Part shown: piece after piece, positions 3,766-27,505 of the stretch
Position numbering within the stretch: the first letter of the stretch is position 1
Layout: each line of letters begins with the position of its first letter
Source of the DNA: Candidatus Wallbacteria bacterium
GTDB taxonomy: Bacteria; Muiribacteriota; UBA9980
Direction of reading: 5' to 3'
DNA: 64,000 nucleotides
Assembly: GCA_022703765.1 (NCBI GenBank)
Contig: JAKJHQ010000001.1
Span: forward strand, 81,854 to 145,853
The notes under the pieces: generated by a model
What the model was told of the DNA's origin: nothing
Databases searched by the model: none
The model's input: only the letters and a program-made list of their open reading frames with translations
Made by a program: the position numbers and the translations under genes

Positions 3766-3846
3766 ATTTCAATCGCCGGTAACGGAAAAATTCTCGATTA
3801 CTAATTCTTAACTCGAATTAATAATTAATCTGGAGGAATTTCAGTC

Positions 3847-5667: not shown

Positions 5668-5673
5668 TTTTTC

Positions 5674-11697: not shown

Positions 11698-13074
11698 ATG
11701 GTAATCGACGAAAATAATATTCAAAGACTGATCGAAGAAAATAAAAACGTTAAAAAAGAAGAAATTCTAAGGATAATCCGTAAGAGCCTCGAATTCAGGC
11801 CACTCGAAATAGCCGAGGCCGCGGCGCTTTTAAATTGCGAAGACGAAAGCCTCATATCCGAAATTAAAACGGCGGCTAAAATCGTTAAAGAAAAAATCTA
11901 CGGCAGGCGCATGGTTTTATTCGCCCCTCTTTACCTTTCGAATTACTGCATAAACAACTGCGCATACTGCGGATTCAAGCAGTCCAACAAGGACATAGCT
12001 CGCAAGACCCTTTCGTTCGAGGAAATAGCCGAAGAAACTTTAAAGATATTAAAAAGCGGACACAAAAGAATATTGCTGGTGGCCGGCGAAGACCTTAAAA
12101 AATGCAGCGTCGATTATATCGTAAAGGCCATCGAAACAGTTTATAAAGTCGATTACAAAGGAAATAAAATCAGGCGCGTCAACGTGAACCTGGCTCCTCT
12201 CGAACACGACGACCTGGTCAAAATTAAAAACGCCGGAATCGGCACCTATCAATTATTCCACGAAGTGTTTCACCGCGAAACATATAAAAAGCTCCATCCG
12301 TCAGGGCCTAAAAAAGATTACGACAAGCGCATATCCATATTCGACAAATGCTACCAGGCGGGGATCGACGACGTCGGAATCGGCGTGCTGTACGGCCTTT
12401 ACGATTATAAGTTCGAAACCCTGGCGCTTTTGACTCAGGCAAAATATCTGGATGACAAATATAAAATCGGGCCGCACACGATTTCAATACCGCGCCTGGA
12501 ACCCGCCGCCGGATGCGATTTCAATCAAAACACCGGATACGGAGTGGCCGACGAAGATTTCAAAAAAGTGGTGGCCGTGCTCAGGCTCGCCGTACCTTAT
12601 ACCGGAATAATTTTATCCACGCGCGAAAAACCCGCTCTCAGAGACGAGCTTATAGAACTCGGCGTATCGCAGCTTTCTGCCGGGTCAAAGACCGAACCGG
12701 GCGGCTACAGCAAACCCCAGCAAGCCACGGGGCAGTTCGTAGTTTCCGATGAACGCTCGCTAGACGAAATAATATCGGCCCTGGCTAATAAAGGCTTCCT
12801 GCCGTCATTTTGCACTTCGTGCTACCGCAGCCTCAGGACGGGCGAATCTTTCATGGCGCTTTCTAAAACAGGCCACATACATGAATTTTGCGATATAAAC
12901 GGGCTTCTGACTTTTTACGAATACCTCATAGACTTCGCTTCGCCGGAAACTAAAGAGGCCGGAATGCTGCTTATCGAAAAGCTCAAACCGGAACTGCTGT
13001 CGGCGGAGCAAATCCAAAAATTCGACGCCTTCGTCAAAAAGTTCAAGGCCGGCGACCGCGATCTTTATGTTTAA
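11698..13074 (+). CDS. hydG: [FeFe]-hydrogenase maturase HydG (radical SAM tyrosine lyase)
   Basis: Radical-SAM CX3CX2C motif (CINNCAYC) plus the HydG-specific C-terminal CX2CX22C (CTSCYRS...HEFC). About 458 aa. The overall ThiH/HydG-like layout, with C-terminal cysteines, distinguishes it from ThiH. Confidence 0.8.
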   Translation: MVIDENNIQRLIEENKNVKKEEILRIIRKSLEFRPLEIAEAAALLNCEDESLISEIKTAAKIVKEKIYGRRMVLFAPLYLSNYCINNCAYCGFKQSNKDIARKTLSFEEIAEETLKILKSGHKRILLVAGEDLKKCSVDYIVKAIETVYKVDYKGNKIRRVNVNLAPLEHDDLVKIKNAGIGTYQLFHEVFHRETYKKLHPSGPKKDYDKRISIFDKCYQAGIDDVGIGVLYGLYDYKFETLALLTQAKYLDDKYKIGPHTISIPRLEPAAGCDFNQNTGYGVADEDFKKVVAVLRLAVPYTGIILSTREKPALRDELIELGVSQLSAGSKTEPGGYSKPQQATGQFVVSDERSLDEIISALANKGFLPSFCTSCYRSLRTGESFMALSKTGHIHEFCDINGLLTFYEYLIDFASPETKEAGMLLIEKLKPELLSAEQIQKFDAFVKKFKAGDRDLYV

Positions 13075-14236
13075 GGCGCTGGCTGATTTTTATAAAGAGC
13101 TCAAAGACTGTTTCCGGCTTTTTTCGGCGTCATCCGCAAAATGCCGGAAAATAGTGTTTTATTCAGAAAGCGATATATACTACCAGTATTACGAGGGAAT
13201 AATAGAAGAGCTGCTTAAAAAGCCCGATATAGAAATCGCTTATGTCACATCGGATATAAACGATTCGATATTTTCCGGCAAAAACCCTCGCATAAAGCCT
13301 TTTTACATTAACAACCTGCTTTCTATAGCAATGATCTATTTTGATTCGAAGGCGTTTATTATGACGATGCCGGACCTGGACAATTTTCATATAAAGCGCT
13401 CGATAAACGGCGTGCACTATATTTACGCTTTTCACGCCATAGGAAGTACTCACCTTCAGTACAGGCGCGAAGCTTTCGATAATTACGACGCGGTTTTATG
13501 CGTCGGGCCGCATCAGGTAAAAGAAATCAAAAAGGCCGAAGAGGTTTACGGCCTTAAGCCCAAAACGCTTATCGAATGCGGATACCACCGCATCGAAAAA
13601 ATCTGGCTCGACCACCGCGGATACGCGGAAAACGAAACCTTTTCCGGCGGCGGGCGAACGACCGTTATGATAGCTCCCACATGGTCGCCCGATAACATTT
13701 TAGACTCGTGCATATATAAAATAATAGATGCGTTAAAAACCGAACCTTCCCTTAACGTGGTAATAAGGCCGCACCCGGAATATATAAAACGCTTCGGAGA
13801 AAAAGTCGCCGCTATACGCAAATACATATCGGACGCAAACAATTTTTCGCTCGAACTCGATATGCTTAAAGACGAAAACCTTCACAAAGCCGATGTTTTA
13901 ATAACCGACTGGTCCGGCATTTACCTCGAATACGCCCTGGGCACCTGCCGGCCGGTGCTGTTCATAAACACGCCCTGCCGCATAGACAACAAAGAATATC
14001 GAAAGCTCGAAATAGAACCGATGGAACTTGCGCTGCGGCCTCTTTGCGGAAGCGTTCTGGAGCCCGAAAATATATCCGCGGTAAAATCCGCGATAGGTGA
14101 ATTAATCGAGAACCGCAGGAAATACGGCGAAAATTTAAATAAAATACGCGGCGAATATCTTTTTAATTTTCTAAATTCGTCTGCGGCCGCGGCCGATTAC
14201 ATACTGAAAATAGCGGACGGGCAGGCCGCTGAATAA
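13067..14236 (+). CDS. TagB/TagF-like CDP-glycerol glycerophosphotransferase family protein (tentative)
   Basis: The C-terminal motif LITDWSGIYLEYA resembles the family signature ITDYSSV(x)FDF, and the 389-aa length fits. Its ATG overlaps the hydG stop as ATGTTTAA. Confidence 0.4.
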   Translation: MFKALADFYKELKDCFRLFSASSAKCRKIVFYSESDIYYQYYEGIIEELLKKPDIEIAYVTSDINDSIFSGKNPRIKPFYINNLLSIAMIYFDSKAFIMTMPDLDNFHIKRSINGVHYIYAFHAIGSTHLQYRREAFDNYDAVLCVGPHQVKEIKKAEEVYGLKPKTLIECGYHRIEKIWLDHRGYAENETFSGGGRTTVMIAPTWSPDNILDSCIYKIIDALKTEPSLNVVIRPHPEYIKRFGEKVAAIRKYISDANNFSLELDMLKDENLHKADVLITDWSGIYLEYALGTCRPVLFINTPCRIDNKEYRKLEIEPMELALRPLCGSVLEPENISAVKSAIGELIENRRKYGENLNKIRGEYLFNFLNSSAAAADYILKIADGQAAE

Positions 14237-14480
14237 TAAAATGATGGCTCTTATTCATTTCATGCGGGTAAGTTTATCAGTGAATAGTTAAGGCTGGGGC
14301 TCGCCCTGCGAGCTCTATATATAAAAGAATAAAAAGCCTTATCGAAATATCAAAAAGTCCTTTAGTTCTCCACTCTCCATTCTGAACTCTTAACTTAAAT
14401 TAATTTAACTTAATATTTTACCCATACGATATGAAAAAGAACCAAAACGATATCCGTAAAAGTTTAAAATCTTTGAAATT

Positions 14481-16061
14481 ATGAAATATATATTAACGCC
14501 CTTATTAATTACGCTATATCCGTTTCTGCTCACGCTGGCTAATAACCGGGCCGACGTGAATATTTCTCAAACCCTGCTCCCTCTGACGGTTGTAGCCGCG
14601 GCGGTGCTAGCGTTAGCCCTCGCCTGCCGGCGGATTTATAATTGCGCCGCTAAAACGTCTGCCGTAACCACGATTTTCGTTTTTTTATTCTTCTCTTACG
14701 GCCATATCGAAGACGCCATGTTTTATAGTTTCGGCAACGCTAACGACAATATACTGGTTTTCGCCATGGCCATAATATCGCTGGCGGCCGCGATGAAAAT
14801 AAAGCAAATATCAAAAGCGGCCGCGGATGACATAAACACCGTATTTATAGCGTTCGCGGTCACTATCGTGCTTTTTCCTCTTTTCACCATCTCCGGACGC
14901 GCGTGGTCCGATTATACGCATAAAGAAGATTTGACAGGCATATTCGAAGAAACGCCGTTCGACGCGGCGAAGCTTGATAAAGCTTCGCTGCCGGATATTT
15001 TTCACATATACCTCGACGAGTACGGCCGCTCGGACGTACTAAAAGAAATATATAAAATCGACAATTCCGAATTCATTAATTATTTAAGGGGGAAAGGATT
15101 TTTCGTGGCGGATAAGAGCCGCTGCAATTATTGCTACACGGACCTTTCGCTGCTTTCAACTTTTAACATGGGATATCTGGACAAAATGACATCCAGACTC
15201 GGCCTCGCGGGCGAAAAAGACCGGAGCATGGCCGCTAAAAAGCTTCTCTGGAATAACGAAGTATTCAAAACAGCTAAAAAGGCCGGTTATAAGATAATCA
15301 CTTTTAACACCGGCGAGCTTTACACTTCCATAACCTCTTCCGACGTTTATTATTCTCCTTTTACCGGCTCATATCACAACGCTTTTTACATAAATATGCT
15401 CCTCAACCTCACGCCGCTGCCCGTGATCTTAAAATTCGCGGGAGCCGATCCGTACCTTCTCTACGACGCGGCCGCGAACCATCGCCGCACGGTCATGCAC
15501 CCGTTCGAAAAAATAGACGAAATACTGGCGGCAAAGGACGGCCCTATATTCGTCTGCCTCTGGGTGGACAGCCCTCATCCGCCTTTCGTCTTCGACGAGG
15601 CGGGAAGGCATGTAACGGCTTTGAAAAGAGGAGCGGCCGCGATAGACCGCTGGGCAATCGAAAGCGAAGAAGACAGGTCGGATTATATCGTCAACTACAG
15701 AAAACAGCTGATTTTTATTACGCTAAAAACGGTAGAATTGATAGATAAAATTCTTAAAAAGCCTGAACGGCGGCCTGTAATCATTCTTCAAAGCGACCAC
15801 GGCCCGGCTTCGCGCTTCGAATTCGAAGTTATACCATCCGACGCGCTAACGTTCAAAGAAAGGTTCGGCATTCTCAACGCGGTTTATCTGGGCGGCAAAG
15901 ACGCCAAAACCGCAGGTTTATACGAAAGCATAACGCCGGTTAATATTTTCAGAATTATTTTCAGCTTATATTTAGGAGCGGATTTAAAGCTCCTTAAAGA
16001 CGAGTGTTTTCATTCTACCTGGCTCAAGCCTTACGATTTCACTAACGTAAGCGGCAGATAA
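14481..16061 (+). CDS. Membrane-anchored sulfatase/LtaS-like (alkaline phosphatase superfamily) phosphotransferase
   Basis: Several N-terminal TM helices followed by an extracytoplasmic domain with ILQSDHGP (an SDHG-type metal/active-site motif). 526 aa. Confidence 0.5.
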   Translation: MKYILTPLLITLYPFLLTLANNRADVNISQTLLPLTVVAAAVLALALACRRIYNCAAKTSAVTTIFVFLFFSYGHIEDAMFYSFGNANDNILVFAMAIISLAAAMKIKQISKAAADDINTVFIAFAVTIVLFPLFTISGRAWSDYTHKEDLTGIFEETPFDAAKLDKASLPDIFHIYLDEYGRSDVLKEIYKIDNSEFINYLRGKGFFVADKSRCNYCYTDLSLLSTFNMGYLDKMTSRLGLAGEKDRSMAAKKLLWNNEVFKTAKKAGYKIITFNTGELYTSITSSDVYYSPFTGSYHNAFYINMLLNLTPLPVILKFAGADPYLLYDAAANHRRTVMHPFEKIDEILAAKDGPIFVCLWVDSPHPPFVFDEAGRHVTALKRGAAAIDRWAIESEEDRSDYIVNYRKQLIFITLKTVELIDKILKKPERRPVIILQSDHGPASRFEFEVIPSDALTFKERFGILNAVYLGGKDAKTAGLYESITPVNIFRIIFSLYLGADLKLLKDECFHSTWLKPYDFTNVSGR

Positions 16062-16149
16062 ATGCGATTTTTTTTATTATTTTTATCGCGTCCGCACTTC
16101 ATAATTTTCCGCCGCGGACGCGAAGCTATATAAAACAGCCCTGGCGGGT

Positions 16150-16587
16150 TTATTTTTTCTTGTCTTTATTTTTATCTTTTTTGTCTTTCTTGCCCTTTTT
16201 ATCGCCTGCGTCTTTTTTATCCTCGGATTGCGCGTTAAACGCTTTAGGAACATAGCTTATAAGTTCGTCCAGCGCTTCGTTAAGAGAAGCTTTCTGCGCT
16301 TCGATCGGCTTGATTTCTTCTTCAATCTTCTGGATTTCCAGCCTTTTCTTATTTATAGCGTTATCGGATTTTTCAATTAATTTTTTCAATTTATCGAGCA
16401 TTTTTTCTTTTTCTTCGTCGGTAAGGGTTTCGTCCTTTATTTTCTGGAGGACTTCCTCGGCGACCGCTTCGGCTTTATCGCTGTTGGCGAATGATTTAGT
16501 TTTAGTTTCACCGGCGGCGGCAGGCGAAGCGTTTGAAAGAAGCGACAGAACAAAGATAACCACGATAAGCTTTAAAAAATTTTTCAT
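16150..16587 (-). CDS. Secreted coiled-coil protein with a Lys/Asp-rich C-terminal tail
   Basis: Signal peptide MKNFLKLIVVIFVLSLLSNASPAAA, a heptad-like charged helical region, and a KKDKKDKNKDKKK tail. Confidence 0.45.
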   Translation of the reverse strand: MKNFLKLIVVIFVLSLLSNASPAAAGETKTKSFANSDKAEAVAEEVLQKIKDETLTDEEKEKMLDKLKKLIEKSDNAINKKRLEIQKIEEEIKPIEAQKASLNEALDELISYVPKAFNAQSEDKKDAGDKKGKKDKKDKNKDKKK

Positions 16588-16621
16588 AAAAACATTCTCC
16601 TATAGAGTAATTCACAATTGC

Positions 16622-16659
16622 TAAAAAAAAAGACAGGTCTTAGACCCGTCTTTTTTTTT
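16622..16659. terminator. Bidirectional rho-independent terminator
   Basis: A9-AGACAGGTC-tta-GACCCGTCT-T9: a 9-bp stem with one G·U pair, flanked by an A-run and a T-run. It lies between the two coiled-coil genes. Confidence 0.65.
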
Positions 16660-16671
16660 ATTCAGATTTTA

Positions 16672-17187
16672 CTACTTTTTGTCTGCGGCCGGTGTAGCAG
16701 GAGTTGCGGGAGTTGCGGGAGTTGCGGGAGCCGCGTCTTTAGCCGGAGGCGTATAGCTGGAAAGTTTGTTGTACACTTCGCTGGCTTTATTTCTTGTTTC
16801 TTCGGCTATTTTAACATGGCCTTCGAGCATTTTTATGGTTTCTTTCATTTCGTTAAGGAGCATTTCGGAATTTTCAAGCCTTTTTTTCATGTTTTCGAGC
16901 ATTTTAGCTTTAGCTTTTTCGTTGATCTTGTTTTCGGCGATAGCGGCTTCAATTTTCGTTATAACTTCGGTAATGGCGGCTATTCTTTTTTTGAACTGCT
17001 CGTCTTTTTTAGCCTGCATCTGATCCATTTTAGCTTTTCTTTCTTCGACGGATTTCTTTTCGCCGCCGGCAGCCGGAGCCGCAGCGTCCTGAGCGAGAGC
17101 CACTCCCGAAACGAAAGATAATAAAAGTGCCGCAACGATTAACAGTTTGAATAACTTCATTAAAAAACCACTCCTTTTAATTTTCAT
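16672..17187 (-). CDS. Secreted coiled-coil protein (paralog of 16150-16587) with a (PAT)n tail
   Basis: Signal peptide (LLIVAALLLSFVSGVALA), a charged coiled-coil region, and a C-terminal PATPATPATPATPAADKK encoded by tandem 9-nt repeats. Confidence 0.45.
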   Translation of the reverse strand: MKIKRSGFLMKLFKLLIVAALLLSFVSGVALAQDAAAPAAGGEKKSVEERKAKMDQMQAKKDEQFKKRIAAITEVITKIEAAIAENKINEKAKAKMLENMKKRLENSEMLLNEMKETIKMLEGHVKIAEETRNKASEVYNKLSSYTPPAKDAAPATPATPATPATPAADKK

Positions 17188-17428
17188 CGGAAGGCATTTT
17201 TAAAACAGCCGCCCGATGTTTTTAGATGATTTAATTTTAGCATATTTTTACTTTAAATTCAAGACGCCCCTGTTTCTTTTTTACCGAAGAAAATTCCGCT
17301 TATTTCATTTTCGCCTACGAATTTATCCATAAGCTCTTTAAATTTAATTAAAGCTTCTTCCCTGCAGGCATTTTCAAAGTAAACGGTAGGCTCGATTTTA
17401 TCTTTATATACTATTTTGCAATAATATT

Positions 17429-18523
17429 TCATGGCCGGTACCTCGATAAAGCTTCTTTAATTTCATACGCGAAGGCTTCGCACTCTTCAAGCTTTATACA
17501 CTCCGGATAGTTTAACCCGAAAATTTTTTTCATTTTATCTATTATATCGCCGCAAAAATAAATCCGGCCTTCCCTGATGTCTTTGATGCCGTCAAAAGAA
17601 AGGCTGGCGCGGTTTATCTCCTCGGCGCGGGACCGGGAAATATCAGCGGGGAGCTCGAGCGCCGCTCCTGCGGCCGAAACTCTAGCCGGATAAGCGCCCG
17701 CCAGCCCTTCCGGGCCGGGTATATGCATAAAATAATTCTGGTCAAAAACGACGGCCTGTATAATTTTAACCATATCGGAAGCGATCATCATGTTTCGCGG
17801 CGGGCCCGACGCCGTGGGTATTTTAGAAAGCTTAAAAATTTCTTCGTCGCTTATTTCATTAAACGGCTCGCCGTCCACAGTGCAGCGCATATAATAAGGC
17901 GAACCCTTGGCAGAAGCTTCGCGCGAAACGTAGGTATTTAAGAAGTGGCTTCCTATCATGACTACTTTTACGCGGCCTGCCGGAATTTTTTTATAGCCCG
18001 CCACCGCGGCCTGAATGCGCGGGACCAGATGGTTCAGGTTGCCGGCGCCGCAAAAAGGCTCAAGGCCTGCACTTTTCAACGCCGGACATACTCCGTCGGG
18101 AAAGCTCGAATTAATTACTTTTGTTTCGACGCCTGATTTTTTTACGGCAAGCATGAGCTTATATATAAGCGGAAGCGAAAGGGCGATCCATGCGCCGTAT
18201 CCTATCTGGTTGGGATATGAATACTGGCCGTATTTAACGCCTTTAATAAACCGCGCCGTATAAGCTATTATATCCGGCTTCATTTCCGCAAGCGTTTCAG
18301 CCGTGCGGTCCACATCGCCCAGGTCCATTTTAACCAGGCTTATATCCGGATAAAACCCCATAATCGCCGCTGAAACTTTAATAGTGTTGATCAGCGCGAG
18401 CGCCTCGTCGGTCGAACGGGTGCCTACTATTATTTTATGGCCTTCTATGCCGGGCGTCCGGGCAAGATATTCCAGCGCGAAACTTCCGGCGCTGCCGAAA
18501 CCGGCTATAAGTATTTTTTTATC
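17429..18523 (-). CDS. Saccharopine-dehydrogenase-like NAD(P)-binding oxidoreductase
   Basis: Rossmann N-terminus MDKKILIAGFGSAGSFALEYL. The ORF extends to 18577, but the start is probably the Met at 18523. Fold-level assignment only. Confidence 0.4.
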   Translation of the reverse strand, partial: DKKILIAGFGSAGSFALEYLARTPGIEGHKIIVGTRSTDEALALINTIKVSAAIMGFYPDISLVKMDLGDVDRTAETLAEMKPDIIAYTARFIKGVKYGQYSYPNQIGYGAWIALSLPLIYKLMLAVKKSGVETKVINSSFPDGVCPALKSAGLEPFCGAGNLNHLVPRIQAAVAGYKKIPAGRVKVVMIGSHFLNTYVSREASAKGSPYYMRCTVDGEPFNEISDEEIFKLSKIPTASGPPRNMMIASDMVKIIQAVVFDQNYFMHIPGPEGLAGAYPARVSAAGAALELPADISRSRAEEINRASLSFDGIKDIREGRIYFCGDIIDKMKKIFGLNYPECIKLEECEAFAYEIKEALSRYRP

Positions 18524-19284
18524 CATGAGGCGTTTCTTCCTTTCGCCACGTCTTCGAGCGTGTTCAAATTTATCCATTCGGCGCTTTCTATTATCACCGG
18601 CGAGAGCGGAAATTTCGCCGCGGCGCGGTTTATAGAAAACAGGCCGTTGCGGGTATCGGGCTTTTCGCCGATTATATTATATAAATAATCTTCGAACATT
18701 TCAATTAAATGTTTAAGGGCGGCGCCTCCGAATTTCCACATCTGCATGCTTTCTCCAATAACATCTTCTCCGGGTTCGATATATTTGAAAACATCGATAT
18801 GGTTTTCGTCGTAGGCGAAATGGCGAACGCTTCCGCCGCGGCCGCAAGCGGCGACGCTCCTGGCCGGATTCAACTCGCAGTTTCTTAAAAGCACGCAGTT
18901 TTCATGCGGCGAACCGATTACGCGCGCGAAATACTGAGCGGGCATCAGAAGGTCCGCTTCCACGATTACCGCGGAATCGGCGTTTTTAAGGTGAGGCGCC
19001 GACAGCGCCATGGAATATTCGCAGCCGTGATAGTTGTAAAAATCGTTTTCCACGAGCTTTACGGCCGTTTTATAATTGCGGGTTCGGATAAACGACCTTA
19101 TTTTTTCGCGAAGATGGCCTACTATTATTAAAGTTTCGTCTATTTCACATTCCTGAAGGCATTTTAATATATAATCGAGCGAATTGGTGCCGCCCAGATC
19201 TATAAGGCATTTCGGCGTATCAACGGTCAGATCTCCCATGCGGCTTCCCACGCCGGCGGCAAGTATGACTGCTTTTTTGATCAT
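18505..19284 (-). CDS. Sugar-phosphate nucleotidyltransferase (NTP_transferase fold; LicC/cytidylyltransferase-like)
   Basis: MIKKAVILAAGVGSRMGDLTVDTPKCL is the classic G-x-G-x-R nucleotidyltransferase N-terminus. The ATG at 19284 overlaps the upstream stop as ATGA. The ORF-track N-terminal extension is spurious. Confidence 0.6.
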   Translation of the reverse strand: MIKKAVILAAGVGSRMGDLTVDTPKCLIDLGGTNSLDYILKCLQECEIDETLIIVGHLREKIRSFIRTRNYKTAVKLVENDFYNYHGCEYSMALSAPHLKNADSAVIVEADLLMPAQYFARVIGSPHENCVLLRNCELNPARSVAACGRGGSVRHFAYDENHIDVFKYIEPGEDVIGESMQMWKFGGAALKHLIEMFEDYLYNIIGEKPDTRNGLFSINRAAAKFPLSPVIIESAEWINLNTLEDVAKGRNASWIKKYL

Positions 19285-20528
19285 TCGTACCACCCGGCCT
19301 CCGGAATTATCGAAGCGAAACGGCCGCCGCGAGCCGTAAACGAGGCATTCGAAGATATTATATCGCGAGCGTATCCCGTTGCAAAAATTACGACCGCGTT
19401 TATATCGTTTCTTAAACCCAGCTCGGAAGGGGGCTTGATAGGAATATCGGTTCCCGGGATAAATTTGCCCTGATATAGCGGGTTTACGTCGATTACAAAA
19501 TTTATATCCGATGACGTCATGGCGCATATATTGATGAGCGAAACGCCGCGCTGGCCTGCGCCCCAGGCGCAAAAATTCGCGCCGCGGCTTCGGGCGGCGC
19601 TTAAAAATTGCCTGAATCCGTCGCAATATGATTTAACTTTAGCCGAAAACGACTTTAAACTTGAAATATCCGTCAATTTATCATCTTCATAAAACGAAGG
19701 CGATATTTTATAAGAAGGATAGAGGCCGCGATTTTTTTCAAATCCGGCATAAATCAAAATAGAGCCGCCTTCCAGCCCGTTGGTGACTGCGTCTATTACG
19801 AACAGGCCGTATTTTTTAAGAAGCTTCGAAAGCGTATCGAAAGAAAAGTAAGAAATGTGTTCATGAAAGAAAGCGTAAAACTGGTTTTGCGATATTATAT
19901 CGGCCGCGTAAGGCACTTCTATCGCGAGCACTCCTTTCTTTTCATCGAGCGCCGAGCATATCGGCTCCATAACGGCGTCGAAATCATTGAGATGCTCCAT
20001 GACATGCCTTATTATTATAACGCCGGCGCCGGCGCAAGTAAATTCTTCGGGCAGCCGGGCGATAGAGCCGCGGCCAAAATAATCGTTGATAATAATAGCC
20101 CCGACGCCGGACGCGCGGTCGGAAGTCAGTTTTGACGAAGGCTCAAATCCGGCCGCCATGGCGCCGCCGCGCGCGAATTCGTTTAGCAGAAAACCGTCGC
20201 CCGAGCCTATTTCAATTACCGTGCGCGGCGAAAACTTAGAAAAAATATCGCCGCAGAGCCAGCGGGCGTAATTTTTAAAGCTTTCCGAATGCGCCGGCGT
20301 ATATGTATAATCTTTATAAATGTCCGAAGATACTATATCGACGAGCTGAATAAGGCCGCATTCTTCGCAGCGGTATGCGTTAAGGGCGAAAAGCCCCGCA
20401 CGGCCTAGGGAAGGTCCCATGGAAGGATTGCCCGCGAGCGCGACTTCGGGCAGGCTTAAAAACATCTCCAGGCGGGCGCTTCCGCACAGCCTGCATTTTT
20501 GGTTTTTGGTGAAATAAATATCACTCAT
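19281..20528 (-). CDS. Class I SAM-dependent methyltransferase with an N-terminal Zn-ribbon (sugar C-methyltransferase family)
   Basis: Zn-ribbon CRLCGS...CEECG, SAM motif I (VIEIGSGDGFLL), and the ~415-aa length typical of TylC3/NovU-type C-methyltransferases. Confidence 0.5.
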   Translation of the reverse strand: MSDIYFTKNQKCRLCGSARLEMFLSLPEVALAGNPSMGPSLGRAGLFALNAYRCEECGLIQLVDIVSSDIYKDYTYTPAHSESFKNYARWLCGDIFSKFSPRTVIEIGSGDGFLLNEFARGGAMAAGFEPSSKLTSDRASGVGAIIINDYFGRGSIARLPEEFTCAGAGVIIIRHVMEHLNDFDAVMEPICSALDEKKGVLAIEVPYAADIISQNQFYAFFHEHISYFSFDTLSKLLKKYGLFVIDAVTNGLEGGSILIYAGFEKNRGLYPSYKISPSFYEDDKLTDISSLKSFSAKVKSYCDGFRQFLSAARSRGANFCAWGAGQRGVSLINICAMTSSDINFVIDVNPLYQGKFIPGTDIPIKPPSELGLRNDINAVVIFATGYARDIISSNASFTARGGRFASIIPEAGWYE

Positions 20529-21462
20529 AGCTTTTCAATATAGCCTCATAAGTTTTTTCCATGCCTTCTTTCAACTTAACCGCCGGGTTGAACCCCAGGT
20601 TTTTTCGCGCTTTCGAAATATCCAGCAGGCGGCGTTCAGGGTCTCCGGCCCGTTCAAGGCTGTATTCAACTTCCACTTCGGCCGAGCATATTTCAAAAGC
20701 GGCCGCCACGAGCCCGGCTATGCTTAACTCCTCGTCCGAACCTATATTGTACGATTCGCCGCTGCCGCCGTTTTTCGCAGCCAGAAAAGCCGCGTTAGCG
20801 GCGTCAGACGCATATAAAAAAGAGCGGCGAACCGAGGAGGCGTTTTTATTGACCCTTATTTTTTTGCCTTCGTGGATGTTTTTAAGAAGATACGGTATGA
20901 CGTGATTTTCTTCGATATCCCGCGGGCCGTAAATATTGGCGTATCTTAAATGGCAAATTCCGAAACGGTCTTTATAGCAGTTGCCGAGGTGCTCGGCAAG
21001 CATTTTGCCCAGAGCGTAAGACCAGCGGGGCGTGTTTTCTACGGCGTCGAATAAAGAAGGGGTAAGCTCGTCGGTGGGAATTTTCTGCGCATGGCCGTAT
21101 ATTTCGGAACTCGAAGCGTTGACGAATTTTTTGACGTTATGGGCCGCGGCCCAATCGAGCATAATTTTAGTGCCGAAGCAGTTATTGTTGAACGTGTCGA
21201 GCGCGCCTTCATAAAAAAATTTAGTGGCCACCACGGCGGCCATATGAAAAACGCAATCGAAATCAGCCAGCGGCATGGACGCTATATCGAGCACGTCGCC
21301 TTTAATGAATTTGAAGCCGGGCGAATTTATCACTTCCGAAAGGTTCTTTATATCGCCCCTGAAAAAATTGTCTATCGCCGTAACTTCAAAACCGGCTTCG
21401 ACGCACATTTCCGCCAGGTATGATCCCACCAGGCCGGCTGCGCCGGTAATTAAAACTTTAAT
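20521..21462 (-). CDS. NAD-dependent epimerase/dehydratase (SDR, UDP-sugar 4-epimerase/dehydratase family)
   Basis: The Rossmann motif KVLITGAAGLVGSYL is encoded upstream of the GTG used in the ORF track at 21429. There is an in-frame TGA at 21466-21468, so the only way to include the G-x-x-G-x-x-G loop is an ATT start at 21462. Catalytic YxxxK region (YALGKMLAE). Confidence 0.6.
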   Translation of the reverse strand: MKVLITGAAGLVGSYLAEMCVEAGFEVTAIDNFFRGDIKNLSEVINSPGFKFIKGDVLDIASMPLADFDCVFHMAAVVATKFFYEGALDTFNNNCFGTKIMLDWAAAHNVKKFVNASSSEIYGHAQKIPTDELTPSLFDAVENTPRWSYALGKMLAEHLGNCYKDRFGICHLRYANIYGPRDIEENHVIPYLLKNIHEGKKIRVNKNASSVRRSFLYASDAANAAFLAAKNGGSGESYNIGSDEELSIAGLVAAAFEICSAEVEVEYSLERAGDPERRLLDISKARKNLGFNPAVKLKEGMEKTYEAILKSYE

Positions 21463-21485
21463 AACTCATCGCCCCTTTCAGGCAC

Positions 21486-22331
21486 TTATTTTTTTGCCCC
21501 CGCGCGAGCGAACCGCCTTATATATTCGCGAAAAGTCCCGCATTTATAGGCTAGAGTATAAAAAGAGCGCATGGGCCAACCCGATTTTATCTTAAATTTA
21601 CTGCTGTTAAAATTAAACCAGGCGTTACGCCTTGCATTGTTATAAAAGATCTTCCATAAATCCGTAAAATTGGAAAATTTCGGCATATAAGCAGCGCATT
21701 GGGGCGCGATAACCGCGCTTTGCGGATAACGCCTGAGCAGTTCCGGCAGCAGGTTGAAATCGATGGGGTTCACGATGAAATCGTAGCCGCTTTGAATTTC
21801 GAGGTAGGTTTTAAATCTCATGGCTACCGCCATTACGTTGGCCTGCAGAAATATTTCGTATTTGTCGCCCGAAAACCCCGTAATGGTATTGCACATGGAA
21901 ATGCCGTATTTTTTTTCGCCGTAGGAAAGATTCATCTGATAAAACGATAAATTTTCCTGAGCAAGCACCGTGGAAGGTATTGAAAAAAGTATCCCCGGGT
22001 CTTTTTTCAAAGGCTCGACGATCCTTTCTATAAAATCGGAAGAGTAAAGTTCGCTGTCTTCGTTTATGAAAATTATATACTCCGGCCCGAATACGGGTAT
22101 TGTACCGCATTCCACGGGACTCGCCGCGCCTGATACGTTTTCTGATTTGCCGCCGCAGTCTTTATAATAGATAGATAATTGCTTCGCGCGCGGATAATCG
22201 TCGATATGCCTGTACGACGAAACATGCAGCGTGTAATCGGAACACTGCGACTGTCTGTCGAACGAATTCAATAATTTTTTAGACACTTCGAGCGATCTGG
22301 TGCATACGACGCAAAGTATTTTATCGTTCAT
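21486..22331 (-). CDS. Putative glycosyltransferase (GT-A-like), hypothetical
   Basis: Weak resemblance only: an N-terminal ILCVVCTRS (like the xVIIPTxN strand) and an acidic FINEDSE (DxD-like). Confidence 0.25.
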   Translation of the reverse strand: MNDKILCVVCTRSLEVSKKLLNSFDRQSQCSDYTLHVSSYRHIDDYPRAKQLSIYYKDCGGKSENVSGAASPVECGTIPVFGPEYIIFINEDSELYSSDFIERIVEPLKKDPGILFSIPSTVLAQENLSFYQMNLSYGEKKYGISMCNTITGFSGDKYEIFLQANVMAVAMRFKTYLEIQSGYDFIVNPIDFNLLPELLRRYPQSAVIAPQCAAYMPKFSNFTDLWKIFYNNARRNAWFNFNSSKFKIKSGWPMRSFYTLAYKCGTFREYIRRFARAGAKK

Positions 22332-22342
22332 CGAGGCAACGC

Positions 22343-23434
22343 CTACATTCCTTTAATGTCTTTGATAATGTTTTCTATAGTTTCGATCGGCGCGGTAAAA
22401 TCGTTAGGCATAAAAATAACGCTTTCTGAAGCTTTTATCGAATTTTTATAATCGGTTTCAGCCAGATCGTAATTTTTCTTGTAGTAGTGCGCCATAGGCA
22501 GCAGAACGGGCATTTTGCGCTGGGCCGGCAGCGGGTGCCTGGCTATTATTTTAGATATTTTATTATAGGCCTCGCGGCTTTCCACAAGCGCGGGCAGATA
22601 ATTAAAAGTGGTGAGCGAATAGTTGTTCTGATCGACGAATTTTATTTCGTTATGCCTCACGCTAATATCGCGCCTGTAATGCTTGGCCAGCATATATTTA
22701 TATTCGATAAGCGCGTCTATATGTTTTAAATGCTCGTTTATCAATCTGGCTTTTTCGTTAGACATGGTAAAATCGGGGACCGGAATTTTCAATTCGCCCG
22801 CTTCGTCGTAGCCGTTATTGAAAATAAGCTTGAGCCTGGCGTTTATCTTATCGTTAGAAGTGGCTATGATGGCCCCGCTGCCGCAGTTTATTATGGACGA
22901 CGAATCGAAGTTGAATATGGAAATATGACCGCGGCTCCCGCATTTTGCGCCTTTATAAACCGCGCCGAGCGACGTGGAAGCGTCTTCGATCACGAAAAAC
23001 TTATATATGGCGGCCGCTTCCATAATGGAATCTATCGCGCATGGCGCGCCGAACATATGCGAGGCGATGACGGCCTTCAGCTTATTGGTGCTCATAAGCT
23101 CCAGATGCGACATATTGGCGTTATAATTGGCAAGGTCGATATCTATGAACACGGGTTTACATCCGAAAAATTCGATCGCGCCGGGAATCTGCGGAAAATT
23201 AAAAGCCGACAGCGCTACCTGCGAATCGAAATCGAGGTTGAGCGTATAAAAAGAAATCAGAAGCGCCGCTGAAAACGACGATACGGGATAAGAATATTTA
23301 GCCCCGGTATAAGCGGAAAAATTAGCGGAAAGCTTTTCCAGCTCTTGCCTGGAGGCGGGCGCGTCAAAAACTGTCCTGATTTTATTTATGGGGTTATCAT
23401 ATATATTGGAACTGTAAATCGATTTTTCGCGCAT
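22343..23434 (-). CDS. DegT/DnrJ/EryC1/StrS-family PLP-dependent sugar aminotransferase/dehydratase
   Basis: Family-typical layout (FIDIDLANYN...ASHMFGAPC...VIEDASTSLGAVYKGAKCGSRG). The start is probably MREKSIY at 23434, because the longer ORF overlaps the upstream gene. Confidence 0.6.
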   Translation of the reverse strand: MREKSIYSSNIYDNPINKIRTVFDAPASRQELEKLSANFSAYTGAKYSYPVSSFSAALLISFYTLNLDFDSQVALSAFNFPQIPGAIEFFGCKPVFIDIDLANYNANMSHLELMSTNKLKAVIASHMFGAPCAIDSIMEAAAIYKFFVIEDASTSLGAVYKGAKCGSRGHISIFNFDSSSIINCGSGAIIATSNDKINARLKLIFNNGYDEAGELKIPVPDFTMSNEKARLINEHLKHIDALIEYKYMLAKHYRRDISVRHNEIKFVDQNNYSLTTFNYLPALVESREAYNKISKIIARHPLPAQRKMPVLLPMAHYYKKNYDLAETDYKNSIKASESVIFMPNDFTAPIETIENIIKDIKGM

Positions 23435-23453
23435 TTTTTCACTTTCCCGTAAT

Positions 23454-24890
23454 TTATTTGGACGAAGCGGCGGTAATATTTTTAAGTATTTTGGGGCAAA
23501 TGGTGTTGATGTCTCTTGCGCCCATAACAAGCACTATATAAGGCTCTTTACTGTTATCCCTGATGGCGTTGGTCACCGAAACGGCCGTGTCGTCGAGTGT
23601 GGCGCAGTAGCTTACGATGTCGCCCGAAAGCTTCGGCCTGATTTCTTCCACCAGTTCGCGCGAAGTGACGCTTTTATTGACCGTGCCGCCGCCGTAATAT
23701 ATTTCGTTGATAAAAAGCCTGTCGCGGGTTTTAAGGTCGGAAAAAGCTTCGCAGAGTTCGCTGCGCGTGAGAGCGGTAGGCCCGAAGCCGTGAGGCTGAT
23801 AAACCGCGATCACCGGCTTATTAAAAATTTTTACCGCGTCTATGGCTGTTTTGATTTCATGCGGGTTATGCGCGTAATCGTCGATCAGCACGACTCCTTC
23901 GTGGCGGCCCACTACTTCCAGGCGGCGGGCGACGCCGCCGTAGTTTTTGAGCCCGCGGGCGATATCGCCGAGAGCGGCTCCTGCCGTGTGGGAAGCTATT
24001 ATGGCTGCGGCGAAATTTTCAACGTTATGGCGGCCGATCAGGCCCGTTTCAAAAAAATGGCCGTTGATTTTAAAGCTGGAGCCTTCGGGTTTGAGGCTTA
24101 CTTCGCTTATAAGGTAATCGTTGTCGTAAGAATTTACATTTTTCGAATATTCAAAATTTATAATTTTATATTTTATGCGGTCCTTCGACGTGTCGCGCGC
24201 GTCGAAAAGTTTTGACACTTCGGGGCATGAAACGTTAATAAGGGCGTATCCGCCTTCGGTTATATTGGAAATGAAGGCGTTGAACAGAGCGTGCAGCTCG
24301 CCCAGCTCTTTGTGCTCTTTGGAAATGTTTGTGAGAAGCCCTATAAAAGGCTTATATTTAATAATCGTTCCGTCGGACTCGTCGGACTCTATCACGAAAT
24401 AATCCGATTTAGCGTAGCGCGAAGATACGTTGAAATTGCGCGAAACGCCGCCGATCACGAACGAAGGCGAAAGGCCGCACGAATCGAGTATAAAAGAAAC
24501 CATCGTGGACACGGATGTTTTGCCGGCGGTGCCCGCTACCGCTATGGAGCGGCTCGAGCGGTTGAAAAATTCGGCTAGAAGATCGGAGCGGTGCATTTCG
24601 GAAAGCCCCAGTTCACGGGCCTTTACGATATCGGCCACATTGTCCTCGATAGCGGTGGATTTTACGATGATGATTTCTTTGGCGCCGATTCCCGCGGCCG
24701 CGGCGAATTTTTCTATTCCGGAACCGTCCTGCGGATAAAGGCCTATCGATTTTGATTTGAATTCTTCGCATATCGCGCCCGAAAGGTTGCGGTCGGACCC
24801 CGCCACGCGGTGGCCCATTTCATGCGCTACGCGCGCTAAAGCCGACATGCCCGAACCGAGTATGCCGATAAAATAATAGCTTTTCATCAC
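23454..24890 (-). CDS. MurC/Mpl-type Mur ligase (UDP-N-acetylmuramate-amino acid/peptide ligase family)
   Basis: MurC-type N-terminal Rossmann (FIGILGSGMSALA...GSD), the Mur ligase P-loop (AVAGTAGKTSVSTMV), and the C-terminal domain (VARRLEVVGRHEGVVLIDDYAHNPHEI). 478 aa. Confidence 0.65.
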   Translation of the reverse strand: MMKSYYFIGILGSGMSALARVAHEMGHRVAGSDRNLSGAICEEFKSKSIGLYPQDGSGIEKFAAAAGIGAKEIIIVKSTAIEDNVADIVKARELGLSEMHRSDLLAEFFNRSSRSIAVAGTAGKTSVSTMVSFILDSCGLSPSFVIGGVSRNFNVSSRYAKSDYFVIESDESDGTIIKYKPFIGLLTNISKEHKELGELHALFNAFISNITEGGYALINVSCPEVSKLFDARDTSKDRIKYKIINFEYSKNVNSYDNDYLISEVSLKPEGSSFKINGHFFETGLIGRHNVENFAAAIIASHTAGAALGDIARGLKNYGGVARRLEVVGRHEGVVLIDDYAHNPHEIKTAIDAVKIFNKPVIAVYQPHGFGPTALTRSELCEAFSDLKTRDRLFINEIYYGGGTVNKSVTSRELVEEIRPKLSGDIVSYCATLDDTAVSVTNAIRDNSKEPYIVLVMGARDINTICPKILKNITAASSK

Positions 24891-24970
24891 AAACGTTCAC
24901 TCCATTAATTAATTTTGTATTATGCTATTTTTGTATAATATAATATAGTATATTTTATCGGAATTTATTG

Positions 24971-25675
24971 CTATTGCTTTATAATAGACTTGAAAATAAA
25001 AAGAAAAATTTCGGAATCGAGGTCTTCTTCTTTCTTTTTACTTATTTGAATTTTTCCATTGGAAGAAATTTTCATGGTGCGAATGCCGAAAGGAGTATTT
25101 AAAACTCCTTTGACGCTTTTTACGTTGGAAGTGTAATTATGGAAAGGCGAAATATCGGCCAGAGTTTCCATTTTACCGTCGAAACGGAGTTTTTTGATGG
25201 TCGGATGCTCCATTTTATCGAAATCCATGGTCTTTATGAAAGCCATCTGGTCGGAAATTTTTAATATTTTTTCGGGGGTTATGAAAACGGGGCGCGGTTC
25301 GATCTTGCTGAATTTGAAGATAAGCGCAAGGCCGGATTTTACGCCGGAATTTTTTCCGAAAGTGATAAGAAGGTCTTTAAATATGACGAAATGCCCTTCT
25401 TCCACTACGTAAAGCTTTTGCGTTTGCACGCGGCCTTCTTCGAGGGCGTCTATTTCGTGGGCTACTATTTCTTTAAAACTTACCGCCATGGCGTTATCGG
25501 CGATAATTTCATTGTAAAAGCCCGGCTGGTTTTCATCGAGAGCGCACTGATTTTCTTTCAGGCTGACGAATTTAAAAAGGTTTTTAACGTCCTGGCAGGG
25601 GAATTCGTAAAACTGAAAAGAGTTGCTTTTAGAAGATATTACAAGACCGCCCTGATTCTGGTTTTGATTCGCCAT
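24971..25675 (-). CDS. Hypothetical protein
   Basis: ORF with no recognisable motifs. The start was moved to the internal Met to avoid overlap with tRNA-Lys. Confidence 0.3.
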   Translation of the reverse strand: MANQNQNQGGLVISSKSNSFQFYEFPCQDVKNLFKFVSLKENQCALDENQPGFYNEIIADNAMAVSFKEIVAHEIDALEEGRVQTQKLYVVEEGHFVIFKDLLITFGKNSGVKSGLALIFKFSKIEPRPVFITPEKILKISDQMAFIKTMDFDKMEHPTIKKLRFDGKMETLADISPFHNYTSNVKSVKGVLNTPFGIRTMKISSNGKIQISKKKEEDLDSEIFLFIFKSIIKQ

Positions 25676-25688
25676 AAGTTTCCCCCGC

Positions 25689-25761
25689 AAATAAAAAATG
25701 AGCCGTAAAGGACTCGAACCTTTAACCTAGTGATTAAGAGTCACTTGCTCTGCCAATTGAG
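25689..25761 (-). tRNA. tRNA-Lys (anticodon CTT)
   Basis: The reverse complement folds as a cloverleaf: acceptor GGGCCGT/ACGGCTC (with one G·U), D-stem GCTC/GAGC, anticodon stem AGTGA/TCACT with loop CTCTTAA, and T-arm AAAGG-TTCGAGT-CCTTT. Confidence 0.85.
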
Positions 25762-25870
25762 CTAACGGCCCACTTAATTTTTAATTTTCAGCTGATTATA
25801 CATCAAAAATCTTTAAAAAGCAAGATTTTTTTAAAAATATTCCAAAATTCATTGAGTTGCGTATGGCTTT

Positions 25871-27085
25871 GTGATAGAATCGATTCGTAAAACCTCAAAT
25901 AGAAAGGCGATTGAATTGAAAAAAGATAAAAACATCATATTTTACCCAAGCGGACATGGTTTCGGCCACGCCGTCAGGCAGATCGAAATCATAAAGGAAA
26001 TTTTCAAATACAACATCGAAAATAAGCGCGAACACAAGGTCATCGTTAGGACAACCGCCCCCGAATGGGTTTTCACTAATTCGCTCGGCTTGTTTTTTAA
26101 AAAGTTATATCCTTCGCGCGCGGCTGAAATACCTCTCTGGTTCAGCTACAGCCGCTCGCTCAACGACGTGGGAACGGTCCAGTCGGACAGCCTGAACATG
26201 GATATAGGCGCCACTTACGAGGCCGCACGAAACTTTTATTCTAACTTTAAAGAAAGAGCTGCCATGGAGGCCGAATTCATTAAATCGAGCCGCGCGGACT
26301 TCGTGGTAGGCGATATCCCGCCCCTGGCATTCGCGGCCGCAAAACTCGCGGGCGTCAGGTCGGCCGGCGTCACCAATTTTTCCTGGGACTTCATTTACGA
26401 AGAATTCGCCGCTGAAAATAAAGGATTCAACGAAATAATAGATACCGTCAGAAGCGGATACGAAAAATGCGGCATGCTGCTTAAATTGCCTTTCGCATGC
26501 CCGCTTCCGGCTTTTAAAAACATTTCGCCGGTTTCCATGATAGCCAGAAAGCCTTATATTTCAAAAGAAGAGGCCCTTAAAATATTAAATATGGCCCCTG
26601 CGGAATTCGAAGGCGTAACAACGGTTATGATAAGTTTCGGCGGATTCGACACCGGCGGCATAAGGCATGAAAATCTATCCGGATACGCCGGTAAATTAAT
26701 GTTTTTAACCACCATAGCGCCCGCGGCCGGCGAAAAATATCCGTCTAACGTTAAATTCATAGACACCAGCTCCGGGGCGATTTCGTTTGAAAATTTATTC
26801 ACGGTATTCGATATAATAGCCACCAAACCGGGATACGGCGTGGTGGGCGACATAATAGGCGCGGATTCGACATGCCTTTTTACCGACCGCGGCCGCTTCC
26901 GCGAATACGAGTACCTGGTGGATTTTCTCAAAAAGCACACGCGGTCTTCGGTTTATATATCAAGAAACGAATTATTGAACTGCGATTTCGAGCCGCGCAT
27001 AAAAGAGCTGCAATCGCAAATTAAAAAGCCCGAACCTATCGATACGCGCGGCGCCTATGAATGCGCCATGGCTATTATCGAATAA
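25871..27085 (+). CDS. GT-B fold glycosyltransferase-like protein (MurG/UDP-glycosyltransferase-like), tentative
   Basis: N-terminal IIFYPSGHGFGHAVRQ (a Gly-rich loop of the G-x-G-x-G-H type). The C-terminal TKPGYGVVGDIIGADSTCLF resembles the GT-B donor-binding region. Confidence 0.35.
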   Translation: MIESIRKTSNRKAIELKKDKNIIFYPSGHGFGHAVRQIEIIKEIFKYNIENKREHKVIVRTTAPEWVFTNSLGLFFKKLYPSRAAEIPLWFSYSRSLNDVGTVQSDSLNMDIGATYEAARNFYSNFKERAAMEAEFIKSSRADFVVGDIPPLAFAAAKLAGVRSAGVTNFSWDFIYEEFAAENKGFNEIIDTVRSGYEKCGMLLKLPFACPLPAFKNISPVSMIARKPYISKEEALKILNMAPAEFEGVTTVMISFGGFDTGGIRHENLSGYAGKLMFLTTIAPAAGEKYPSNVKFIDTSSGAISFENLFTVFDIIATKPGYGVVGDIIGADSTCLFTDRGRFREYEYLVDFLKKHTRSSVYISRNELLNCDFEPRIKELQSQIKKPEPIDTRGAYECAMAIIE

Positions 27086-27112
27086 AAACGGGCCCTGATT
27101 TTATATCCGCGG

Positions 27113-27151
27113 AGCGCCTTCCCGGTAACTATATCGGGAAGGCGCTTTTAT
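27113..27151. terminator. Bidirectional terminator hairpin between convergent genes
   Basis: AGCGCCTTCCCG-gtaactatat-CGGGAAGGCGCT (12-bp stem) followed by TTTTAT and preceded by A/T-rich sequence. Confidence 0.6.
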
Positions 27152-27166
27152 AAAAAAGAAACTGTA

Positions 27167-27505
27167 TTAAGCTTTGAACTGCTTGACGGCGTCTTCTTCT
27201 TTTTCGAACACTTTAAAAATTGAATTAAAACCGGTTAATTTAAACACTTCATCGACCGTTCCGTGCAGGCCGCAAACGTAAATATCGCCCTGTTTGGCCT
27301 TTGCGCGTTTCGCCGACGCGAGGACGCCTCTAAGCCCGGCGCTGCTTATATATTCCAGTTCCTGAAAATTTACTACGAAAAAAAGGTTATTTTCAGCCAT
27401 TAATTCGCTCATCTTTTTTTCGAATTCCGGAGCCGAATTAGCGTCCATTCTTCCGTTAACGCCAAGGACGGAAACGTTTCCCTCTTTTTTTAACGATATC
27501 TGCAT
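27167..27505 (-). CDS. STAS-domain anti-sigma-factor antagonist (SpoIIAA-like)
   Basis: 112 aa. The conserved phospho-Ser context is ELEYISSAGLRGVL. Typical STAS length. Confidence 0.7.
   Translation of the reverse strand: MQISLKKEGNVSVLGVNGRMDANSAPEFEKKMSELMAENNLFFVVNFQELEYISSAGLRGVLASAKRAKAKQGDIYVCGLHGTVDEVFKLTGFNSIFKVFEKEEDAVKQFKA

Follow-up and report, generated by a model that had tools for sequence, protein, structure and literature searches.

This report concerns a Mur-ligase locus within a 64-kb stretch of DNA (the window, meaning the whole stretch that was analysed) on contig JAKJHQ010000001.1 of a Candidatus Wallbacteria bacterium. Eight open reading frames (ORFs), all co-oriented on the minus strand between 17429 and 25690, include the genes for a MurC/Mpl-like ATP-dependent ligase of 478 amino acids (23454–24890) and, next to it, a 363-residue DegT/DnrJ/EryC1-fold protein without the Schiff-base lysine (22343–23434). 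The ligase belongs to an old, widespread clade of MurC/Mpl-like paralogues that is distinct from the MurC encoded in the division and cell-wall (dcw) cluster. The locus was inherited vertically as an operon and is not a transferred island bounded by a tRNA gene; it is composed of an invariant ligase/DegT-like pair in a mostly conserved five-gene locus together with a strain-specific cassette (17429–21459). The reading preferred here, held tentatively and rated just short of an even chance, is that this operon carries a UDP-N-acetylmuramic acid (UDP-MurNAc) peptide-salvage ligase of the Mpl type, a non-catalytic DegT-like partner and an appended sugar cassette. An earlier note on this DNA had described a horizontally acquired sugar island with an amino-sugar pathway; its observation is largely real, with all eight co-oriented genes present, and its interpretation needs recasting.

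The Ligase and Its Clade

The ligase matches all three Mur-ligase domains in Pfam (PF01225, PF08245, and PF02875) and contains GTAGKT and DDYAHNP among its motifs, which bears out its earlier assignment to the MurC/Mpl type. It aligns end to end with MurC (TIGR01082; structures 1p3d, 2f00, and 8dof), has the same three-domain architecture, and keeps the UDP loop G-x-G-x-G-M-S with GSD, the P-loop GK(T/S), the Mg/ATP motifs ExDESD and NIxxxH, and the RR motif. Unlike MurC, it has GTAGKT in place of GTHGKT, is 27% identical to the E. coli enzyme, and scores 297.1 bits against TIGR01082 (murC), below the equivalog cut-off of 335.1. It also differs from Mpl: identity to E. coli Mpl is 25.5%, the score against TIGR01081 (mpl) is 149.9 bits vs. 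a cut-off of 388.7, QPHG[FY]GP stands where Mpl has EPRSNT, and its UDP loop departs from the GI(C/G)GTFM of Mpl (PMC3060825). Relatives in the lineage score 278–305 against TIGR01082, and the clade overall 275–369. NCBIfam holds no dedicated model for this clade, and its scores straddle the TIGR01082 cut-off, which explains the mixed naming of its members, part of them as MurC and the rest as "Mur ligase family protein."

The motifs GT[ASN]GK(T/S), DD[FY]AHNP, (Y/F)QPHG[FY]xP, and Y(Y/F)(G/A)GGT are common to all of the top 120 homologues, and the equivalents in P. aeruginosa MurC are GTHGKT, DDYGHHP, QPHRYTRT, and VYPAGE. Counts over genome loci given below refer to the best 80 of more than 600 matches (one genome per species), obtained in a scan that took IDD[FY]AHNP and YQPHG[FY]GP as its seed peptides; about 90 loci were fetched overall. 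A DD[FY]AHNP-type motif is present in 78 of the best 80 loci, a frequency that partly reflects selection, because the scan was seeded on motif peptides. No DD[FY][AG]H[NH]P was found in L063 and L070, and no QPH motif in L054 and L064.

The clade extends over Riflebacteria, Brocadiales, and Elusimicrobia, and further over Bacteroidota (Chryseobacterium lacus, Flavihumibacter petaseus, and Chitinophagaceae) and Alphaproteobacteria (Brevundimonas diminuta, Sphingomonas daechungensis, and Magnetospirillum molischianum). Alphaproteobacteria and Bacteroidota carry murC inside dcw, so the clade ligase is a paralogue in these groups. None of the genes for MurG, Ddl, and FtsW lies within 10 kb of a clade ligase in the approximately 90 loci, which is a further difference from MurC. 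The window itself gives no tblastn match to E. coli MurG, DdlB, or FtsW, in agreement with the earlier placement of the locus outside dcw, and contains no second MurC-like gene. In a neighbor-joining tree, the clade is monophyletic with respect to the MurCs of E. coli and P. aeruginosa; its branching broadly matches that of the species, with the Wallbacteria-like sequences as sister to those of Riflebacteria. The absence of dcw genes nearby, the differing clade motifs and the separate position in the tree all uphold the view that this ligase is not an ordinary dcw MurC.

In Riflebacteria (L006, L007, L009, L017, L018, L024, and L026), the ligase gene comes last in a conserved string, after genes for a LysM–M23 peptidase, a 627-residue protein, a CarboxypepD_reg protein, and a lipoprotein-like protein of 208 residues, and a stand-alone B3_4 protein (PheT editing-domain-like) is encoded 3′ of the ligase in six Riflebacteria loci. 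The literature search returned no biochemistry for any clade member, no relevant account of a MurC paralogue paired with LdcA, and no dcw data for Riflebacteria or Wallbacteria.

The Amino-Acid Site and a Possible Link to Peptide Recycling

HiMurC holds the L-Ala that it adds through His376, Arg377, Arg380, Tyr346, and His348 (PMC3060825). The clade keeps His376, Tyr/Phe346 (Tyr in the window ligase), and His348; Arg377 is replaced by Gly and Arg380 by Pro, giving QPHGFGPT in the window ligase. Neither the UDP loop with its GSD nor the ATP/Mg motifs vary within the clade, which makes a UDP-linked acid the likely substrate, most simply UDP-MurNAc. The earlier proposal of ligation onto a UDP-activated, MurNAc-type acid sugar is reasonable to this extent, given the kept UDP motifs and the altered amino-acid site; the C-methyl/amino-sugar setting in which it was placed does not hold (see below).

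An LD-carboxypeptidase (LdcA), with both the N- and C-terminal Peptidase_S66 domains, is encoded in the fetched flanks of the ligase in 22 of the 80 loci, nearly all of them from Alphaproteobacteria/Pseudomonadota, and directly beside the ligase in most of these 22. It is the only recurrent neighbor of the ligase across phyla. Larger proteins in the Elusimicrobia loci L039 and L053 cluster with the LD-carboxypeptidase group, as putative S66 proteins. LdcA produces the tripeptide that is used by Mpl. Mpl joins the tripeptide rather than L-Ala and is also without Arg377 (PMC3060825). With Mpl, the window ligase shares its MurC-like character, its place outside dcw, and a changed site for the nucleophile that is to be joined.

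Taken together, the kept UDP motifs, the lost arginines, and the LdcA neighbors make an Mpl-type salvage ligase the best reading of the clade. Such an enzyme would convert the carboxylate of UDP-MurNAc (or of a UDP-acid sugar much like it) to an acyl phosphate, and would then couple to it a nucleophile that is not free L-Ala; as with Mpl, a recycled stem peptide is the most plausible one. The DegT-like protein would serve the ligase as a non-catalytic or repurposed partner rather than as an aminotransferase.

The DegT-Like Protein

The DegT-like protein has the PF01041 fold over its full length (E 9e-44, profile positions 24–359 of 360), and its nearest structures are sugar aminotransferases. 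When it is aligned to one of these, perosamine synthetase (7b0m), a serine occupies the position of the Schiff-base lysine. In the window protein and in all nine homologue clusters (P0121–P0129; 53–99% identity), the changes are K to S, SGT to SFS, FSF to FNF, EGG to GSG, and NYR to DFT. The phosphate-binding SGT, Ser, Asn, and Arg of DegT/DnrJ/EryC1/StrS aminotransferases are thus all replaced, whereas the Asp that binds the pyridine ring and the stacking aromatic residue are kept. The alignment also includes generic DegT proteins, which retain the lysine or have His in its place (P0132 and P0137; 3-dehydratase type), and the serine therefore also distinguishes the window protein from the ColD/E1 3-dehydratases. 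With most ligands of the phosphate of pyridoxal phosphate (PLP) changed, binding of the cofactor is doubtful. The DegT fold named in the earlier note is present, but the aminotransferase function is not: judged from these substitutions, the protein cannot act as a standard aminotransferase or form a PLP Schiff base.

The DegT-like protein is lineage-restricted and strongly selected. Among relatives it is 70–83% identical, which exceeds the conservation of the ligase, and its next homologues outside the lineage are just 26% identical. In every related Wallbacteria-like locus, its gene adjoins that of the ligase.

A PLP-fold partner was also considered as a general pattern and rejected: the gene 5′ of that for the ligase in the Planctomycetota locus L010 encodes an ordinary threonine-aldolase-like protein with an intact Lys, and it is not recurrent.

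Conserved Core and Strain-Specific Sugar Cassette

The closest homologues of the ligase are 59–94% identical to it, and one of them is labeled Candidatus Wallbacteria. The loci of these relatives repeat one arrangement, consisting of a divergent gene for 386–389 residues, a tRNA gene, a gene for 234 residues, the ligase gene, the DegT-like gene, and a gene for 256–296 residues. The corresponding features of the window are c4 (404 residues; 25871–27085, plus strand), tRNA-Lys (25698–25772, minus strand), c5 (234 residues; 24971–25675, minus strand), the ligase, the DegT-like protein, and c7 (281 residues; 21486–22331, minus strand), which is kept 3′ of the DegT-like gene in most relatives. The core of 21486–27085 is present in relatives, although in L011 the genes for c4, c5, and c7 are missing; the ligase and DegT-like genes remain there, overlap by one base and are followed by a heptosyltransferase gene.

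Synteny extends beyond the core. L002 additionally has a recA–comEC–STAS flank and, on the opposite side, LtaS/sulfatase-like and TagF-like genes (13432–15048 and 20732–21446 in that locus), and these flanks, common to L002 and the window, mark the neighborhood as syntenic. In the window, a TagF-like CDP-glycerol glycerophosphotransferase is encoded at 13067–14236 and a membrane LtaS/sulfatase-like protein at 14481–16061. The LtaS-like gene of the window is inverted relative to the operon and lies beyond the inserted cassette.

The cassette, also on the minus strand, begins after c7 with an extended-type short-chain dehydrogenase/reductase (SDR), a nucleoside diphosphate (NDP)-sugar epimerase/dehydratase (20521–21459; PF01370 and PF16363, E about 1e-40). 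It continues with an NDP-sugar C-methyltransferase that comprises a Zn ribbon, an S-adenosyl methionine domain, and a C-terminal domain (19281–20528; PF08421, PF13489, and PF08484), and with a sugar-phosphate nucleotidylyltransferase (18505–19284; NTP_transf_3/DUF6564 in Pfam). The last gene of the operon encodes a saccharopine-dehydrogenase-like NAD(P)-binding oxidoreductase (17429–18577). The cassette genes are packed with overlaps of 4–8 nt in the same operon. Pfam supports the earlier calls of an NTP-transferase, a Zn-ribbon C-methyltransferase (Methyltransf_13/23/14), and an SDR, whereas the saccharopine-dehydrogenase-like call is a weak one (Sacchrp_dh_NADP, PF03435; E 0.0012, 19.7 bits vs. 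a cut-off of 25.1). The best NCBIfam matches of the SDR are LegB and dTDP-glucose dehydratase, far under their cut-offs, and those of the nucleotidylyltransferase are weak matches to the N-terminal domains of GlmU and MurU.

As called, the ORF of the SDR gene spans 20521–21429, but its start probably lies further upstream. Its Rossmann motif, VIKVLITGAAGLVGS, lies in frame upstream of the first GTG and directly after a TGA, and no ATG, GTG, or TTG precedes the motif (21429–21470, minus strand). The start is likely an ATT about 9 nt after a GGGG Shine–Dalgarno sequence, as the nucleotide sequence suggests. A three-codon ORF (ATG AGT TAT TAA) overlaps the start region.

The C-methyltransferase, nucleotidylyltransferase, and saccharopine-dehydrogenase-like genes (17429–20528) have no counterpart in any related locus, and an SDR orthologue occurs only in L001 among these loci (72% identity). 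The C-methyl/amino-sugar cluster in which the earlier note placed the ligase is no conserved companion of it: three of its genes are peculiar to this strain, the fourth is shared with one relative, and its aminotransferase is disabled. By family chemistry, the cassette would proceed through activation, 4,6-dehydration, C-methylation, and ketoreduction, and we infer that it alone would suffice to make an NDP-6-deoxy-C-methyl-hexose.

tRNA-Lys, Probable Promoter and Vertical Inheritance

The tRNA-Lys gene (anticodon CTT) was identified by ARAGORN and by Rfam (RF00005, 70.6 bits), and was the only match in an Rfam scan of the window. It and the divergent gene on its other side were both located where the earlier note had them, and the end that the note gave to the region, 25761, falls within the tRNA. 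The tRNA and c5 are co-oriented and separated by 22 nt. A tRNA-Lys(CTT) gene occupies the same place in L002–L005, L013, and L015, on the same strand and 22–25 nt upstream of the 234-residue gene. In L001, where the corresponding stretch is 1440–1585, the orthologous tRNA has the same acceptor and T arms and a remodeled anticodon stem-loop that reads GTT (Asn).

A TATAAT box, recognized as a −10-like element by its match to the consensus only, lies about 22 nt upstream of the tRNA (25795–25800, minus strand) and is invariant in a DNA alignment of the window, L001, L002, and L003. The GGGG Shine–Dalgarno sequence before the ATG of c5 is also conserved, and a T-run is found between the tRNA and this ORF. 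From its position and conservation in the alignment, the TATAAT box is likely the promoter of both the tRNA and the operon. Because the tRNA has the same position in relatives and the TATAAT and GGGG elements are conserved, it reads as a leader gene that apparently opens the transcription unit, and not as a boundary. A scan of 16000–27300 for promoters and terminators gave counts at chance level and no operon boundaries.

Horizontal acquisition had been suggested from an apparently higher GC content and from the tRNA as a boundary. The GC content of the 17.4–25.7 kb region is 0.471, vs. 0.469 ± 0.011 in equal-sized windows, which does not bear out the former claim. In tetranucleotide distance from the window as a whole, the region ranks at the median, with about 47% of other windows at or above it, and GC at third codon positions in its genes matches that of flanking housekeeping genes. 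Likewise, the boundary claim conflicts with the conserved position of the tRNA in relatives and with the search for repeats of the tRNA 3′ end over the whole window (up to three mismatches), in which the tRNA itself was the sole match. No long direct repeats were found flanking the region, and no match to integrase families was seen among the scanned ORFs of 14481–27085, where no search aimed at integrases was made. Of the findings that the earlier note had named as jointly refuting its view, uniform composition is observed, and so is conserved synteny in relatives for the core. Transfer thus fails on composition, on attachment-site (att) repeats, and on synteny, the core and the tRNA being kept down to about 60% ligase identity.

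Weighing the Readings

Several points weigh against the reading of the ligase as an Mpl-type salvage enzyme with a non-catalytic partner. No LdcA is encoded in the window, or beside the ligase in Wallbacteria-like, Riflebacteria, and Brocadiales loci, which in the Wallbacteria-like lineage is a difference from Mpl. The members from Riflebacteria and Planctomycetes (L008, L009, and L010; P0038, P0041, P0108, and P0115) score 336–369 against TIGR01082, thereby pass its cut-off, and bear the name UDP-N-acetylmuramate–L-alanine ligase from the Prokaryotic Genome Annotation Pipeline (PGAP) or the source record; the equivalog probably over-calls MurC in these groups. The canonical outgroup in the tree comprises two gammaproteobacterial MurCs only. 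If a Wallbacteria-like genome has no other murC, this ligase must do the MurC job. In addition, the strong purifying selection on the DegT-like protein also fits a new enzymatic role, and the tight operon, the SDR beside c7 in L001, and the glycosyl-related genes leave room for a tie between the ligase and nucleotide sugars.

Unlikely, in our assessment, is the explanation that this is a housekeeping MurC that merely lies outside dcw, namely the sole UDP-MurNAc:L-alanine ligase of the lineage, as in the sister Riflebacteria, with neighbors that are unrelated and vertically kept. The full-length MurC alignment, with a TIGR01082 score twice that for Mpl, accords with this explanation, as do the Riflebacteria and Planctomycetes members above the cut-off and with MurC as their source name, the agreement of the clade tree with the species tree, and an operon that brings a tRNA and an RdgC-fold protein, unrelated in function, together with the ligase; in Frankia, a second type of murC is reported to have replaced the first (PMC7231273). 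It is difficult to reconcile, however, with the loss across the clade of both arginines that bind the L-Ala carboxylate, with LdcA beside the clade ligase in many loci, and with the pairing with the DegT-like gene, which is invariant and abutting, down to the base shared in L011, and suggests a functional unit. A further difficulty is that the clade coexists with a dcw murC in Alphaproteobacteria and Bacteroidota, the latter gene being general knowledge for these groups and the non-dcw context of the clade ligase being observed.

Doubtful to a greater degree is a two-protein machine resembling MurT/GatD, in which the ligase would activate a UDP-sugar or peptide carboxylate and the DegT-like subunit would present an unusual amine (e.g., an NDP-amino-sugar or a species bound to pyridoxamine phosphate), for a lineage-specific modification of the cell wall. 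MurT/GatD provides the precedent of a Mur-ligase homologue that works with a partner enzyme (PMC6085368). Here, too, a Mur-ligase homologue is encoded beside, and may work with, another protein whose enzyme fold is unrelated to its own, and the two genes are always adjacent in Wallbacteria-like loci, even where c4, c5, and c7 are gone. The restriction of the DegT-like family to one lineage, its high conservation, and the loss of the Lys alongside the kept pyridine-binding Asp and stacking aromatic residue are consistent with such a machine. Unlike MurT/GatD, the partner has a PLP fold and is not a glutaminase, and the ligase is MurC-like and without DUF1727. Moreover, the interaction is putative, most PLP-phosphate ligands are changed, and the ligase does not differ at its amino-acid site from clade members lacking such a partner.

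An extended form of this idea is comparably doubtful. It holds that ligase and DegT-like protein are an obligate two-subunit enzyme by which a UDP-muramyl-type carboxylate would receive a non-canonical nucleophile, a cell-wall precursor chemistry of this candidate phylum unseen elsewhere, and that the GT[AS]GK/QPHG[FY]GP clade is a third class of UDP-MurNAc ligase mis-annotated as MurC.

The pathway of the earlier note, in which all eight genes were acquired together at tRNA-Lys to join an amino acid or peptide, by means of the ligase, to a C-methyl/amino nucleotide sugar acid, is improbable: the co-oriented, tightly packed operon with stop/start overlaps in its distal genes, the SDR that recurs beside c7 in L001, the heptosyltransferase after the pair in L011, the nearby TagF-like and LtaS/sulfatase-like envelope-polymer genes, and the kept UDP-binding domain of the ligase are in its favor, but only one of the four sugar genes has a counterpart in any relative, the supposed aminotransferase lacks both Lys and PLP-phosphate ligands, the set includes no enzyme that makes a sugar carboxylate, the tRNA and core are syntenic in relatives, and neither composition, att repeats, nor the ORFs examined (without an aimed search for integrases) carry a sign of transfer.

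Other Proteins of the Locus and the Window

The first ORF of the operon, c5, has an RdgC-like DNA-binding fold (a TBP-like double domain) and exceeds all other proteins of the locus in conservation. It is probably a binder of nucleic acid or protein and not an enzyme. Identity to E. coli RdgC (2owl) is 9%, the lengths differ (234 vs. 303 residues), and the Pfam RdgC model gives no match. As a candidate for a dedicated partner of the ligase, c5 is weakened by its homologue P0146 (37% identical), which is encoded together with CheY/CheX genes.

The proteins c7 and c4 had been described as GT-A-like and GT-B-like, respectively. Conserved at 51–72% identity in L001–L003, L013, and L015, c7 is without family assignment: it has no match in Pfam, NCBIfam, or the Protein Data Bank (PDB), hhalign against a GT2 protein gave nothing, and a single-sequence structure model was unusable (predicted local distance difference test score 33). 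Its conserved INE(D/G)SE stretch bears only a visual resemblance to a GT-A-type motif, and the GT-A description is not confirmed. For c4, which shares 54–65% identity with its counterparts in relatives and is transcribed away from the tRNA in every case, the GT-B description is weakly upheld by two signals, PF13528 in two of six orthologues (best E 0.026) and an alignment by hhalign with the motif through which E. coli MurG binds its donor (E 0.049); it contains GHGFGH near the N-terminus and TKPGYG near the C-terminus. PDB sequences gave nothing beyond noise when searched with profiles of c4, c5, and c7.

The remaining genes of the window, which encode [FeFe]-hydrogenase, RecA, ComEC, and SelB among others, fit an anaerobic bacterium. 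Between the cassette and the LtaS-like gene, tandem paralogous genes (16150–16587 and 16672–17187, minus strand; starts about 500 nt apart; repeat family D4) encode small secreted proteins that are rich in Lys and Glu and of coiled-coil character, one of them with a terminal PATPATPATPA repeat. A NuoF/HydA-type hydrogenase operon (2596–7395) is located upstream of a gene for a sensory-hydrogenase histidine kinase (8065–10068), in which a domain like the [FeFe]-hydrogenase large subunit is fused to HisKA/HATPase, and of a gene for a hybrid response-regulator kinase (10096–11592) that follows it. At 43046–44080, a single protein of 344 residues combines a DJ-1/PfpI domain with a rubrerythrin domain.

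Implications

Mur ligases are antibiotic targets and serve as markers of peptidoglycan synthesis in genome surveys. The present clade scores around the MurC cut-off and is partly labeled MurC by PGAP, while it is without the arginines that clamp L-Ala and is found beside LD-carboxypeptidase, so that calls of "murC present" in uncultured phyla may be wrong. A peptide-salvage step like that of Mpl may also exist in lineages thought to be without it. No homologues of Mpl or LdcA have been reported in Caulobacter and Agrobacterium (PMC13046382, PMC9790009); these two genera may truly lack them, and relatives such as Brevundimonas have the ligase/LdcA gene pair. Finally, the ligase is invariably paired with a DegT-fold protein that is conserved yet catalytically disabled, which offers for cell-envelope biosynthesis a clear case of a pseudo-enzyme partner that can be tested.

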